Below, in pieces: positions 28,113 through 34,100 of a DNA stretch of 64,000 nucleotides. The notes beneath the pieces were generated by a model, which worked only from the letters and a program-made list of their open reading frames with translations, searched no databases and was not told the origin of the DNA. The DNA comes from an uncultured Aquimarina sp. (GTDB taxonomy: Bacteria; Bacteroidota; Bacteroidia; Flavobacteriales; Flavobacteriaceae): assembly GCA_947496705.1 (NCBI GenBank), contig CANMDW010000003.1:217622-281621 (forward strand), read 5' to 3'. Position 1 is the stretch's first letter, and each line of letters starts with the position of its first letter. A program made the translations under genes and the position numbers.

Positions 28113-31100
28113 TTATTTCAATAATTTTTGGATCTGTGCCAAAGGAGCTGCATTTGCCAAAGATCCCAGTTCGTCACTTTTCCAGTTGCTGTACACTTCT
28201 TTTAACGATAGTCCTTTTTTCTTCAAGCTTGTTAGACAGCTCTTCAAATGGTCAATATCTTCCTTTTTGATCGCTTCTTTTTCATCTAAAACCAACTTGT
28301 CTAGCAGGTGCCAGGTGGCATTTTTTAGCAATTCAATAAAAACTTCCAAATTATTGTCCTTTTGCAAGCTGTATTTGTTAAAAAAGTCTACCAATTCTTT
28401 ATATGCAGTTATGGTGGGTGTATTTTCCAGGAAAAATACCGCACGTTCATAGCTTTTGGTCTTTACCATATTGGTATCGGCAGCAGCTTTTATATTGGCA
28501 AGGTATTTTGGTTTTCTTTTTCGGATGTTGGTCAATATATCTTTTACTGTTGTCTTGGGTGTTGTTTTTTTTGCGGCTTCCTTTTTAGGTGTCGTTTTTT
28601 TTGTGGATGTTTTTTTGACTACAGGTTTTTTTACCGGTGTTTTTTTCTCGGTGCTACTTTGTGCTTTTTTTGGCTGTTCTTTTACTCTTTTGGTCTTTGG
28701 TGTTTCTTTTTTGGAAACAGCTACTTTTTTAACCGGCTTTTTTTTCTGGGCAGCAGTTTTGGTAGCGGGTTTTGCTTCAATCACTGCAGTGGCAGCGATA
28801 TCGACTCCCGGTGTTTCCTGAGGATCGGGAATATCTGGCGGGCAATATCCCCAGAAAATACTACCCTGGCTATCTTCTGGTAGTACCATTCTATCATCAT
28901 TACCATTGCAGTTGCAGTCACCTTGTGCTCCTGGTATTGACGGACATGGGGATTCTGATTGCAAGTCTCTTATACATTCTGCGAGCAAGCAATTGATCGT
29001 TCGCCCATCGAGATCACATCCTGGTGCTGAAGGATCTTGTTTCCACACCAGCCATTTTCTATAGGTCTCTTCAAACTTGCACATATCTCTGGGGCTTAGC
29101 CATAAAATATGCAGTCCTACCAAGGCTGGTACTTCTTTATACAAAAAGTTCTCAAAAGCTTCTCTATCTTCTTTGGTCCTAAATCGTTTTGCCCAGGATG
29201 GCAATACAAGGGTAGCCCAAAAAGAATAGGGATCGCTCCCCGGCACATAATGAATCTTAAGCGGTTCGGATACCGCACAGGGATCATCCTTATCCATATC
29301 AGGATGCCATTCGATTGCGCAATCATCATCGGGGCAAACAGGTAATAAACAACTTACTTCAACTCGATTTCCGTCTGCATCATTAAAAACATCTTTACAT
29401 TCACCTTCTTTTTTTGGTCGTAATAAAATATGCTCCAGCAGATGCATCCCTACATCGGTTACACAGTTTTTTGTAAGTTCGATCGCATCTTTTACCTCCT
29501 GCAGACTATCATATTGTTGTGGGTGATAGGCCAGTTCTCTTTGCTTGTTGATGATTTGAAAAGAATACGGGCCATATTCTGAAGTTTCTGTACATTCTGC
29601 GGTATATGATCTATCGATAATGATGCTTGAAAATTCAATAAATGCCTGCAATGCTTCAGTACAACAATGGTAGTAGTTACTGCTCATAAAGGGATATGGT
29701 TCCTGACAGGGATCATCATTGGTTATCACATCGGTACAACCACAAGGCTGCAATCCATCTGGTGTGGTAACGATATCATTGTCTGACCAGTACAAGCGAT
29801 AGCAATAGCCGGTATCTGTTTTGTAAACCGGAAAATAATTGGTAAGGTCTTGCACAATTTCATAGCTGAAATTATACTCATCAATAAGATTATATACCCT
29901 GCGATCATCTTTGTATTTTTCTTTCAGAAAGGACTTTATAGCTGCATTTCGATTTTGTTTATCTACCTTATCGGCTTGTATCAAGCTCTCTCTTAAGCAC
30001 AGCATAAAATCACAAAACTGCTTATCACTATATCCATATCCTATCCAGTACAAAAAATCTCCTCCCGGACGGGTACTTCCTCCGTCTGAAGGTTTTTCTA
30101 CAATGTACTGGTTCCAATCCAGGTTCTCGAGCCTAGAAATCCAACTGTTCATTTGCTCATCTCTTTCTTTTGAAGCATTGTAATGACAGTTGTGATCGGA
30201 CACAAAATATGCAGGAGATACCACTTTAAATTTCCAATAATTGCTATCGCAAACCGGGATATAATTTTTATCCTCTTCGGCAGCATAGACAAATTCTCTC
30301 ACCCCGCCCGGAATACAATTTTGACAATTATCGGTAGTATTGGGATAGCTATCATCCCACGCTTGCTCGTCTGAATCGAATTCAAAGATACTTTCTGCCA
30401 AAACTTCGACTAGTCCCACATAATAATCACCTTTTTCACAAAATATGCGGCAATTATTGGCCGTTCCTGCCAGATTATAAAAATGTTGATATGCACCTAT
30501 CGCTTTTTGGAGTGCATCATAACTATATACACTTTCCCATAACAGGCTTCCCAAAAAATCTATTTCGGTATCGATAGTACATCCTGTTTCACTAAAAATA
30601 ACTTCGGGTTTGGTTACTTTATATCGATAGGAGATTTGATCATTCTCATCAGTAATTTTGTAGATAGGAAACAGATCTGCCAGCTTCGTATAATACTCGA
30701 TTACATTTTTTTCTCTAGCTTCAATATCTTGCCTGATCTTTTCAGGAATTACTACAATAAAGGATGCATCGTTACAGGATTTATCTTCATCAGTTTTGTA
30801 GACTTCATCAATACTTATACTGCAATCATGATCCTTGAGAGGATCGTTTTCTCCACCAGGGGTGTCATTATCATCTTTACAATTGTTATATGTATTGTAT
30901 GCTATTTCTTTTCTGGCAATTTCAATAACATCCAACCAATTTTTATGCCAGGCAGCTTCGGCTTCTTCATAAGTATCATATCCTACATAACTGATCAACA
31001 CAAATTCATTGTTTTTATCATCTTTAAAACATACCTGATAATGGTATTTGTTGGGACTCTTTTCCGGACAGACCACAATTTCCTTTGCAGGGCATTGTTT

Positions 31101-34100
31101 CAGGTTTATAGGCGGGGTAGCATCACAAATAATTGATTTTATATGCTCTGCCAGAGATCTGTTTGGGCATCGATACGGGCTTGTGGCTAAAGGAGCATTC
31201 TTTTTGTAAAACCTCCACTCGTATCGCCCTTCCTGATTTTCAACCATCTCCCTGTTTATATAAGCTTCTTTTACCTCCAGATTTTTTGTATACATAGTAT
31301 TTGCATACTCAATGACTGCTTTGGCTTTTATGGGGGATGCTTTGGTCCCTTCTTTGGTATACTGGGTGGCAATCTCTGTTTTTTTATCAGATTTGTTAAG
31401 TATAAATTCGTGAGTACCTTTTGAAGTGGATTTAAATGACAGTGCGGGCAACTCTTTCATAAAAGCTGTATAGGCTTTTGATGCTTCTTCACGAGTTGTA
31501 AAAGTATCGGTACTTATGAATAGCGGTTCTAAATCATTTTGTGCGTTACTTGTTCCATAGATAAATTTGTACTGTGCCGGTGTAGCTACTGCGCTAAATT
31601 CATAACAATGTGGCTTAAACAGTTCATTATTCGATTTTATTGCTTCGGCAACCACTACTTTATCAAAATCGGCCTGTGCCCTGGCTTTTGAAGAGAACTC
31701 TGTAGCAGATTGTAGTATTTTTTTCTCATTATCCAGTAATGACCACACATATCTTCTGGGTTCTTCTTTTACAAAAACAGGAAGTTTGTTGCTTTTGAAA
31801 TAGCGGATCATCGCATTTAATGCCTTAGTACGATCGGCTGCAGTTTCAAAATGATCGGGTGGCAAGGCCAAAAATGAATCATACTGATCACGTAATATAA
31901 AATTATATTCTGGATTGCCCTGATCCCCGGAAAGTAAATAATTCTTTTTATTTTCACCCTGTTTAAAGATATTCTCAAGTTGTTGCAATGCTTCTTTTTC
32001 TGTATTGTATACGCAATTGCTTATCAAAACAGCTGTGCTGTCTTTTCCTACTATCTGAAACCCAAACTTATTGCGTTCTTTGTCATACTCAGGTTTTGTG
32101 TTTCTATTGCTAAAAACGGTGACGCACTCTTCGATGATAGTGGCAGCTTCTTTTTGAGCAGGGTCTATGGTATTGGAAACAGCGATGATATTTCCTTTTT
32201 CGTTTTTAACTTCAATTTTAAGGGATGCTCCTTCTTCTTTAACCACATAATTCTTTGCACCACTTCCCAATACTTTTGCTTGTCTCCAGCCAGCTACGGC
32301 TTTATAAGCATCAGGGTAATAATCTACTCCTGAGATCGAAATATCTTCATTGATGGCAAGCCTCCATTTCAGGGCAACTTCATGAACAGTGAGATAATTA
32401 TTGAGCTTTGCCTCACGTACCATATGGTCCCAGGCATCATCATACACCTCGAACACCTGCTCACTTGAGGATGTTTCTTTGGTATGTATTTCGTTTACAT
32501 GCCATTTCCAGGTAATCAGTGTTTGGATATCACAATCTAAGGCATTTACATTAAGGAAATTATTGTTATCATCCAGAGGCAACAAACGATATTCTTTTTC
32601 TTCAGCTGCTTTGATTTTTATGGTTTGCGTGTTGATATTTTTAACAAAGTCTTCTTTTTTGTCGAGTGCTGCTTTTTCAGACCGCATCTTCATACTCTTA
32701 CTTTCTACCACTACTTCTTTTTCTGTATTACACAATTGCTGATGGTAATGGTATTTGGTAATAATGATATTTTCTTCGGCCGGTTGTTCAGAAAATATAC
32801 GGTGCATGGCATGGGCGTCAAACCCGTTCAGGCTTTTTTCTAGTTGTTTATACGTATCCGGATTACGTAGTTGTTTTAATACTTTTTGTGCGGCATCACT
32901 TAATTCTTCTTTGGTTTCATATCCTGTATTGCTTCTGAAAAATGTATTGCCAGACTCATCGTTTAATACCAGTCTGAAGCTTTGTACGACTTCAAAATTG
33001 CAGAGGTTACGGCGCTCATAATTACTGATTCCTGATAATAAAGACACTCGCTTTTCAAAACCCGAAACATTATTTGTATTCCAGGACGGTTCTAAATAGT
33101 TGAATGCCTTACCTCTGTTTCTGCCAACTTCTGCAAACTCATTGATGTATATGGATTGGCTATCGATCTCATCATCAATTTCAGCTTCAGCACTTATATT
33201 ATTTTGATATTGCAGTAAAGTATAGTCTGTGAATTCTTCTCCGAACCTGGCTAGCAGATGATCCAGGAATTGTTTTCGCCGTATGGCATATTCATCCTTA
33301 TCTTCGGTTAATTCCTGAATTAAATCAATATATGATAAAGGACTGTAAGTGATGTCAAAATAATGGCTATCTGGCAAGATCGTATCGGAAGCATCGGTTA
33401 CCAGATGATAACTTTGAGACATTGTACCTATAAAAGCTACTTTTTTTGCTTCTTTTCGGGCTTCACTTTCAGAAATATATCGCTTTATACCGATCATCAG
33501 GATATCATCGGGAAGGCCTGCCTGAATGACAAAAAAGTATCCTCTCTTATCTGATAGAACTTCTATCGTATACTGCTCATTAAAGAAAGAATCTACCAGC
33601 TGATTGATATAAATGTTGCGCACCCCTACAGAGGAAAAACTGAACAAATCCACCAGGCCTTTTTTATCATTACAGTAATCACCGATAGTAAATTCGATGG
33701 ATGGATTATTTTGCAGCTTTTCTTTACTGGTTTTCCATTGTTCATTATTTGATACCGGAACCGCTAATTGAGAACCTGCTGGTACAGTTTCATTGGGATC
33801 ATAAAACCGCAGTAATTCTTGCAGCCCTGGCACCGTTTCCGGAATTTGAGTAAAATAGGTCTGCTTTTCCTCTTCACTTCTTTGATTTTCAGGCTTCAGG
33901 GAAAATAAAGATCTGATATTGGCCAGCTGTGAGGTATAATTAGCCAGCATTTGATCATAAAACATCAGATATCCTTTGAGTTGTAATGCCTGGGTTTTTC
34001 GCAATAAGGTGGCACTTTCTGGCAGGCCATCTTCTCCGATACCATACACTACCGGAAAATCGTTTTGAACAGCATAGTATTCACTCAGGTCTTCGCGATA

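Follow-up and report, generated by a model that had tools for sequence, protein, structure and literature searches.

The stretch of DNA analyzed here (the window; 64,000 nucleotides of an uncultured Aquimarina sp., GenBank assembly GCA_947496705.1, contig CANMDW010000003.1, forward-strand positions 217,622-281,621) contains the locus of an extracellular contractile injection system (eCIS). One of its open reading frames (ORFs), encoding 2387 amino acids (aa) and designated P0001, is by sequence homology a Cis12/Alg12-type (gp6/gp7-like) wedge protein of the eCIS baseplate. This wedge carries about 16, possibly 17, small YegP-like modules in its peripheral, gp7-like part and ends in a domain related to the C-termini of certain fibres. 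We have high confidence in this identity and architecture taken together. The best explanation of the whole, to which we assign a probability of roughly 55%, is a giant wedge with a YegP-like arm and a fibre-type end that takes over attachment.

No part of contractile injection systems is less conserved or less understood than the finding and holding of a target, which decides which cells are affected. The locus suggests a third solution, next to Afp13-type and Alg19-type fibres: an attachment device within the wedge.

A wedge protein expanded by YegP-like modules

The P0001 gene (28113..35276; unless stated otherwise, coordinates are window positions and features lie on the minus strand) was compared with PDB sequences. 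It matches All3315, the Cis12 of the thylakoid-anchored contractile injection system (tCIS) of Anabaena PCC 7120 (PDB 7B5H; E 9e-134), Alg12 of AlgoCIS from Algoriphagus machipongonensis (PDB 7AEB, 9WSZ/9WT0; 7e-96), Pvc12 (6J0N; 1.7e-25) and Afp12 (6RAO; 4.6e-21), in agreement with a first-pass annotation of the sequence that had named it an Afp12-like wedge. Three blocks are conserved with the solved members (residues 14-494, 646-813 and 1899-2106), all of them present in the top match, All3315. Between the second and third blocks lie ~50 residues in Alg12 (933 aa in total), ~440 in All3315 and ~1100 in P0001. Homology of the core and the C-terminal wedge domain, together with the gene position after a Baseplate_J-type Cis11, places P0001 among the Cis12/Alg12/Afp12 wedges. 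Afp12 and Pvc12 (~950 aa) have the homologous core and the same relative gene place after a Baseplate_J gene, but they lack the array and are followed by a separate Afp13/Pvc13 fibre gene, which the P0001 locus does not have. Close homologues of the wedge come from Aquimarina and other Flavobacteriaceae, with more than 50 orthologues of 2250-2400 aa; an alignment of 53 of these shows a conserved architecture with few gaps. As read here, the ORF starts with GTG (window 35268-35276), while public records start two codons on, with ATG, resulting in 2385 aa.

The modular nature of the expanded part is clearest in predicted structure. The AlphaFold2 model of residues 1010-1222 (predicted local distance difference test, pLDDT, 87.2) consists of four strand-strand-strand-helix modules. 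A Foldseek search of the PDB with this model returns the tCIS Cis12 as the top match (7b5h_AD; E 3.7e-5, 167 columns), followed by 2k49 (E 2.4e-4, template modelling (TM) score 0.66) and E. coli YegP (2k8e; E 1.5e-3, TM 0.68, root-mean-square deviation (rmsd) 2.5 Å, Foldseek probability 1.0); 3bid, 6q2z and 2k7i are also listed. What P0001 has in common with the YegP/DUF1508/UPF0339 family (PF07411; 2K8E, 2K49, 3BID, 2K7I, 6Q2Z) is the same ~50-residue strands-then-helix unit in tandem, with TM 0.66-0.68 and rmsd 2.5-2.6 Å over two modules and homology at the profile level. YegP proteins are small, cytoplasmic proteins of one or two domains without an assigned function. P0001, unlike these, would contain 16-17 highly diverged copies within a structural protein, all below the Pfam cut-off.

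A model of the longer segment 755-1954 (pLDDT 73) contains 16 modules, which fits a first-pass count of about 15 or more repeats. They are predicted at residues 761-802, 837-879, 914-955 and 962-1004; 1010-1056, 1063-1106, 1121-1162 and 1167-1213; 1224-1274, 1279-1328, 1352-1384 and 1411-1454; and 1538-1603, 1672-1717, 1817-1887 and 1891-1937. The first twelve mostly reach pLDDT values of 80-90, with the second half being less confident. The four motifs that had been picked out by eye locate to residues 767-795, 1071-1100, 1176-1204 and 1904-1932, and the range cited with them (29480-33550) corresponds to residues 576-1932, the expanded part of the protein. With the longer model, the sole significant Foldseek match is again the tCIS Cis12 (7b5h_AD; E 1.3e-7, 407 columns). 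Both sequence alignment and Foldseek place the array at the insertion point of the 'wide connector' of the Anabaena protein: the All3315 extension (residues 676-1119) sits where P0001 has residues 813-1899 and shows the same fold. This "Cis12 extension" (aa 610-1100) is a peripheral arm that touches the thylakoid membrane (Weiss et al., PMC8894136). The P0001 extension is ~2.5 times longer (~1100 versus 440 residues), with a Cys-rich distal half, and P0001 adds a basic tether and a fibre-type C-terminal domain in a locus that lacks the Cis13 and Cis19 partners.

At the sequence level, the repeats are real and very diverged. Self-BLAST of the wedge finds no internal repeat, and an HMMER profile built from modules m5-m8 recovers nothing above noise elsewhere in the protein (best 1.2 bits, with shuffled controls up to 5.3); the periodicity is detected by AlphaFold2 and by hhalign links between modules. 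These module-versus-protein links (m1, m5, m6, m9, m12, m14 and m18) score 29-42 against controls of 10-23, with m14-m18 at 41.6 and m9-m14 at 33.1. When the 53-orthologue alignment is compared by hhalign with 28 genuine DUF1508 domains from Bacteroidota genomes, in-register matches lie at residues 767 (m1; score 41, 79-95%), 1071 (m6; 31, 25-91%), 1124 (73%) and 1904 (64%), with weaker ones at 581, 844, 969, 1019, 1176 and 1413. Reversed controls stay at or below 23, compared with 41 and 31 for the two best real matches.

Wider searches connect the modules to canonical members of the family. Using the m5-m8 profile against 1.84 billion representative proteins, 160 clusters were found. Among 143 newly retrieved matches, 112 are at least 1500 aa long, 104 of which have the Cis12 N-terminal core, and some proteins are matched in up to 11 stretches. 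The same profile reaches proteins that consist of only 4, 5, 8 or 13 canonical DUF1508 domains (E 1.6e-5 to 4e-9). As these pure 4-13-domain proteins (P0192, P0201, P0204, P0205 and P0212) lack the Cis12 core, long DUF1508 arrays also exist outside injection systems. Moreover, distant Cis12 homologues exceed the Pfam gathering cut-off for DUF1508 (PF07411; 22 bits), namely P0057 (37 bits), P0078 (35.8) and P0071 (63.2), and the Alg12-sized homologue L017 does so at the position of m1 (31.6 bits). Predicted structure and profile comparison together identify the modules as remote homologues of the YegP/DUF1508 family that share its fold. In our literature search, no paper was found that connects DUF1508 with injection systems.

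Along the protein, the gp6-like wedge core (residues 1-494; 33795..35276) aligns with All3315 7-492 and Alg12 3-475, and its identity to P0001 across orthologues averages 37-84% per 40-residue block. It is followed by a lineage-specific insert (495-645; 33342..33794), absent from the Alg12 and All3315 alignments, in which a seventeenth module is possible (m0, 576-615); its in-register DUF1508-like matches are weak (scores 17-22) and within the control range. A conserved linker domain (646-760; 32997..33341; aligned from All3315 504 and Alg12 486) leads into the first half of the array (m1-m12, ~52-64 aa each; 761-1454; 30915..32996), recognized by AlphaFold2, Foldseek and hhalign, of which m1 is also conserved in Alg12 and All3315. 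The Cys-rich second half (1455-1937; 29466..30914), delineated by AlphaFold2, hhalign and its cysteines, holds modules m14, m16, m18 and m19 as well as a variable loop, a helix pair, a five-helix bundle (1740-1814) and a Cys-rich block (1605-1702). Module m19 aligns with All3315 from residue 1119 and Alg12 from residue 704. Next come the conserved, Cys-rich C-terminal wedge domain (1938-2150; 28827..29465; aligned to All3315 1302 and Alg12 831) and a Lys/Pro/Thr-rich low-complexity tether visible in the sequence (2151-2242; 28551..28826), with only 12-13% identity to P0001 and 33-59% gaps across orthologues in residues 2161-2240. The protein ends in a helical domain (2243-2387; 28116..28550). 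In total, 38 of its 50 cysteines are kept in at least 80% of orthologues, mostly in residues 1370-2145, consistent with the Cys-rich later repeats noted at first pass.

Alg12 has the wedge core, m1 and the C-terminal wedge domain in common with P0001, and AlgoCIS is of the same type as the P0001 locus, both with a long Cis11 partner. The gp7-like part of Alg12 was described as an evolutionary hotspot (PMC8894135, PMC13314943). Our results show that this hotspot grows by copies of one small domain, with Bacteroidia lengths running unbroken from ~760 to ~2400 residues. They also connect the domain with YegP/DUF1508, for which structures have been solved but no function is known.

Separate fibres and a fibre-type C-terminus

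The wedge ORF sits directly between the Cis11 gene and the tape measure gene (26475..28109; PF19268 CIS_TMP, E 1.9e-106), with no gene between, as had been read from the gene order at first pass. Since the tape measure abuts the wedge gene (the gap is 4 bases), there is no room there for a fibre gene. No window ORF matches a fibre in Pfam, PHROGs or PDB sequences (a set that includes Alg19, Cis13 and Cis19), in agreement with the first-pass reading of a locus without an Afp13-like fibre. When the unannotated ORFs were searched for fibre relatives against PDB sequences and PHROGs, the sole match was a 442-aa ORF resembling All3326. For an Afp13/Pvc13-type fibre between the Afp12 and Afp14 homologues, Pfam and PHROGs return nothing, and no search with Afp13 sequences themselves was made.

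AlgoCIS binds cells via a separate 1443-aa fibre, Alg19; the fibres attach at the gp7-like part of Alg12, and their C-terminal part binds targets (PMC8894135, PMC13314943). A hidden Markov model (HMM) of the Alg19 N-terminus (620 residues, 20 members) gives no match at E<=10 among the 6148 six-frame ORFs of the P0001 genome, while the same model matches 23 proteins in control loci. Neither the window nor the genome contains a protein with the N-terminal shoulder and neck (~500 residues) of Alg19/Cis19-type fibres, and family scans find no Collar (PF07484) or TssK family in the genome.

The search for an unlinked fibre gene finds no Alg19-type gene and one fibre-like gene in another eCIS locus. 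The genome holds three eCIS loci and three gp25 genes in all. Two of these loci, both complete, lie outside the window: the second locus (contig C3:90362-110024) has an 820-aa Cis12 and the third (contig C26:17018-40057) an 895-aa Cis12. The second locus contains a 399-aa gene between Cis11 and Cis12 (C3:96047-97246, minus strand) that encodes a C1q head (Pfam 43.7 bits) behind a conserved, attachment-like domain at the N-terminus. Its relatives, which differ in their C-terminal parts, occur in 18 other surveyed loci at the same position between Cis11 and Cis12. This is the only CIS-linked fibre-like gene of the genome, inside a locus with a short Cis12. Five further proteins of the genome with GNVGIGT-type repeats were considered as CIS fibres and rejected, having only the repeat in common and carrying signal peptides and a conserved coiled-coil tail; by sequence, they look like secreted proteins (C21:23436-25788, C42:15584-16663 and C4:238259-249395). 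A sixth candidate (C15:16772-17848) likewise has only the GNVGIGT repeat in common.

Comparison across Bacteroidia shows how wedge length and fibre genes are distributed. In 401 genomes, Cis12 lengths form a continuum from 763 to 2387 aa. We fetched 40 Bacteroidia loci and analyzed 48 in all; in 40 of these, Cis11 and the tape measure could both be assigned. Among those 40, the interval between the two genes contains an additional ORF of 200 aa or more in 28 of the 31 loci with a Cis12 below 1750 aa and in one of the nine with a larger Cis12. Thirty additional ORFs with 450 aa or more lie between Cis12 and the tape measure; 22 of them resemble Alg19, and one of the 30 matches Alg19 at E 5e-110 and Cis19 at 1e-45. 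Separate fibre genes, present in most other loci, are missing from the giant-wedge clade.

The end of the wedge itself points to fibres as well. An HMM of the domain at residues 2243-2387, run over the 579 ORFs of the 48 loci, matches two groups: the giant wedges, and two proteins (L069, E 1.9e-7; L074, E 5.1e-7) whose genes lie between Cis12 and the tape measure and which are matched at their very C-termini. At the N-terminus, both of these proteins, along with three relatives, are complete Alg19-type fibres (E 1e-96 to 3e-155). An hhalign comparison of the wedge domain with the fibre C-termini reaches 96.9% (E 2e-10) over 118 columns that extend to both C-termini, with a score of 67.0 against 18.6 for the reversed control. 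Judged by this alignment, a subfamily of Alg19-type fibres has a C-terminus homologous to the last ~120 residues of the wedge, whose own genome has no Alg19-type gene. A word-indexed homologue search with the fibre C-terminus returns only four close relatives. Because an Alg19-type gene directly follows cis12 in most loci, a deletion joining the two would be a simple origin for the giant wedge.

Possible attachment by the wedge and competing explanations

In the explanation we favor, the gp7-like part was expanded at the 'wide connector' insertion point by a chain of modules, one of which is already present in short Cis12 proteins. Because the chain is anchored in conserved wedge domains on either side, it should leave and re-enter the baseplate edge, and with one wedge per sixfold position, six such peripheral arms or lobes would result. 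The distal half is probably stiffened by the conserved cysteines, via zinc or disulfides. In the ancestor of the clade, cis12 and the 3′ end of the neighboring fibre gene were probably fused by a deletion, so that the wedge itself would carry the attachment function that is provided elsewhere by separate fibres, with the DUF1508 chain as spacer or arm and the C-terminal domain as contact end. The parts of this scenario differ in strength. Replacement of the fibres by the wedge itself is close to an even bet, leaning slightly to the negative. The fuller version, in which the clade gave up its fibres and captured an Alg19-type distal domain by fusion, now displayed beyond a 16-17-bead arm, is offered tentatively. 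If true, contact with a target would be coupled directly to the trigger of the baseplate, and DUF1508 would gain its first role, as a stackable structural bead.

A built-in arm that replaces fibres had been proposed at first pass, along with a cage. The arm is plausible: it sits at the site of the tCIS arm, in a clade without fibre genes, and ends in a fibre-type C-terminus. The cage is not supported for this protein, since the spike cage of AlgoCIS and of tCIS is formed by Cis11/Alg11, through an additional domain (PMC8894135, PMC8894136). In the P0001 locus, residues 554-901 of the Cis11 protein align weakly with All3317 532-722 and Alg11 320-548 (the domain IV region); with its 1546 aa, this Cis11 has sufficient length for a spike cage and is the candidate builder of one.

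Several observations weigh against the explanation we favor, or against parts of it. The Pfam DUF1508 model finds no match in the whole wedge or in ten segments of it at E<=10, and a six-frame genome scan with PF07411 recovers only an ordinary 110-aa YegP (contig C22) without reaching the array. The YegP/DUF1508 likeness noted by eye at first pass is upheld by hhalign, profile search, Pfam matches of homologues and AlphaFold2/Foldseek, but not by the Pfam model on the protein itself; on sequence grounds the modules are relatives of the family and, by the Pfam criterion, not members. Residues 1605-1702 are conserved yet poorly modelled, and the overall shape of the arm is not reliably predicted (predicted TM score 0.40 for the 755-1954 model). 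In a wedge-core tree, the eight fibre-less giants form one clade (support 100/99) spanning four families, so the association of giant wedges with missing fibre genes represents one evolutionary event that was kept, and a Fisher p of 1.8e-5 exaggerates its strength. Every wedge of 1470-1685 aa is accompanied by an additional gene in at least one of the fibre positions, and most by both types; as these mid-sized arrays coexist with fibre genes, the presence of an array does not by itself rule out fibres. A further wedge of 1922 aa (L070), which is independent, occurs with an extra 501-aa ORF, and the C-terminal domain was not detected in the clade members L035 and L037. Finally, the C1q protein of the second locus could act in trans on the giant-wedge particle, and two Cys-rich, acidic coiled-coil proteins of 302 and 337 aa, encoded in the structural block between the sheath and tube genes (window 44416-46368), could be unrecognized fibres.

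The last two points lead to an alternative in which the array is a docking platform and an unrecognized separate fibre, either a coiled-coil protein or the C1q protein, binds there. Such docking would resemble AlgoCIS, where the gp7-like part of Alg12 is the attachment site, and tCIS possesses an alpha-helical, trimeric fibre-like protein, Cis13 (PMC8894136). Four related loci have kept the 337-aa coiled-coil gene, the C1q gene lies ~120 kb away on the same contig, and the mid-sized arrays do occur together with fibres. However, neither coiled-coil protein has any match, CIS fibres included, in PDB sequences or PHROGs, nor does a profile of the 337-aa protein match PDB sequences; the C1q fibre belongs to its own complete locus, and the wedge already bears a fibre-type C-terminal domain. 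We therefore regard a docking platform as unlikely.

Instead of binding targets, the arm could anchor the particle to the membrane of the producing cell, like the tCIS wide connector, or connect particles into a lattice, as in metamorphosis-associated contractile structures (MACs) or subtype iv type VI secretion systems (T6SSiv). Among solved structures, both wedge proteins are closest in sequence to those of Anabaena tCIS, whose homologous extension contacts the thylakoid membrane (PMC8894136), and this part of Alg12 was proposed to mediate superstructures (PMC8894135). A conserved two-helix membrane protein is also encoded directly after the tape measure gene. Against this stand the lack of a Cis13-like transmembrane fibre and of a Cis19 crown in our searches, and the cap, tape measure, AAA ATPase and DUF4157 cargo, which are typical of released eCIS. 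Flavobacteria have no thylakoids. In addition, the C-terminal domain is also found on fibres, whose C-terminal part binds targets in AlgoCIS. An anchoring or lattice-forming arm is thus improbable in our view, and the attachment arm remains the reading we prefer.

That the YegP likeness merely reflects convergence of a simple small fold or an alignment artefact, with no true repeat array, would agree with the negative self-BLAST, within-protein HMMER and Pfam results and with several individual hhalign matches within the control range, but it is very improbable given a profile that reaches canonical DUF1508 arrays, homologues that pass the Pfam cut-off (in L017 at the orthologous m1), the five YegP/UPF0339 entries in the Foldseek list and up to 11 matched stretches per protein in relatives.

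The surrounding locus

The eCIS locus consists of co-oriented minus-strand genes, running from ~49.8 kb down to ~6.9 kb of the window. Its structural genes start with a Pvc16-type cap, the 442-aa ORF, the sheath and the two coiled-coil ORFs, followed by two gp19-type tube genes, CIS_tube, VgrG, PAAR, gp25, Cis11, the 2387-aa wedge and the tape measure. The Cis11/Alg11-type wedge partner (Baseplate_J type, 1546 aa; 35277..39917) matches All3317 at E 1.6e-164 and Alg11 at 3e-86, and the order Cis11-Cis12-tape measure is common to five related loci from at least three genera of Flavobacteriaceae and Saprospiraceae. On the 3′ side, the structural genes are followed by DUF4157 (eCIS_core) cargo genes and an AAA ATPase.

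Several neighboring genes can be described further. The 442-aa ORF beside the Pvc16 cap gene (window 47857-49185) has a weak match (E 0.0011) to All3326, a chain of the tCIS cap entry 7b5i, and is probably a second cap protein like Cis16B. Directly 3′ of the tape measure gene, a 223-aa protein with hydrophobic N-terminal helices is encoded (window 25787-26458), with 69% identity to its counterpart in an Aquimarina sediminis locus. Among the cargo genes, a vanadium-haloperoxidase-like gene adjoins a ParA gene (window 11689-14161), and this pair recurs with 72-86% identity in eCIS loci from two related genomes (L032 23581-25814 and L034 24148-26425). Beyond the 3′ end of the locus, window 1-6508 encodes, also on the minus strand, a TIR-domain protein and a bacterial alpha-2-macroglobulin, the gene of which runs off the window.

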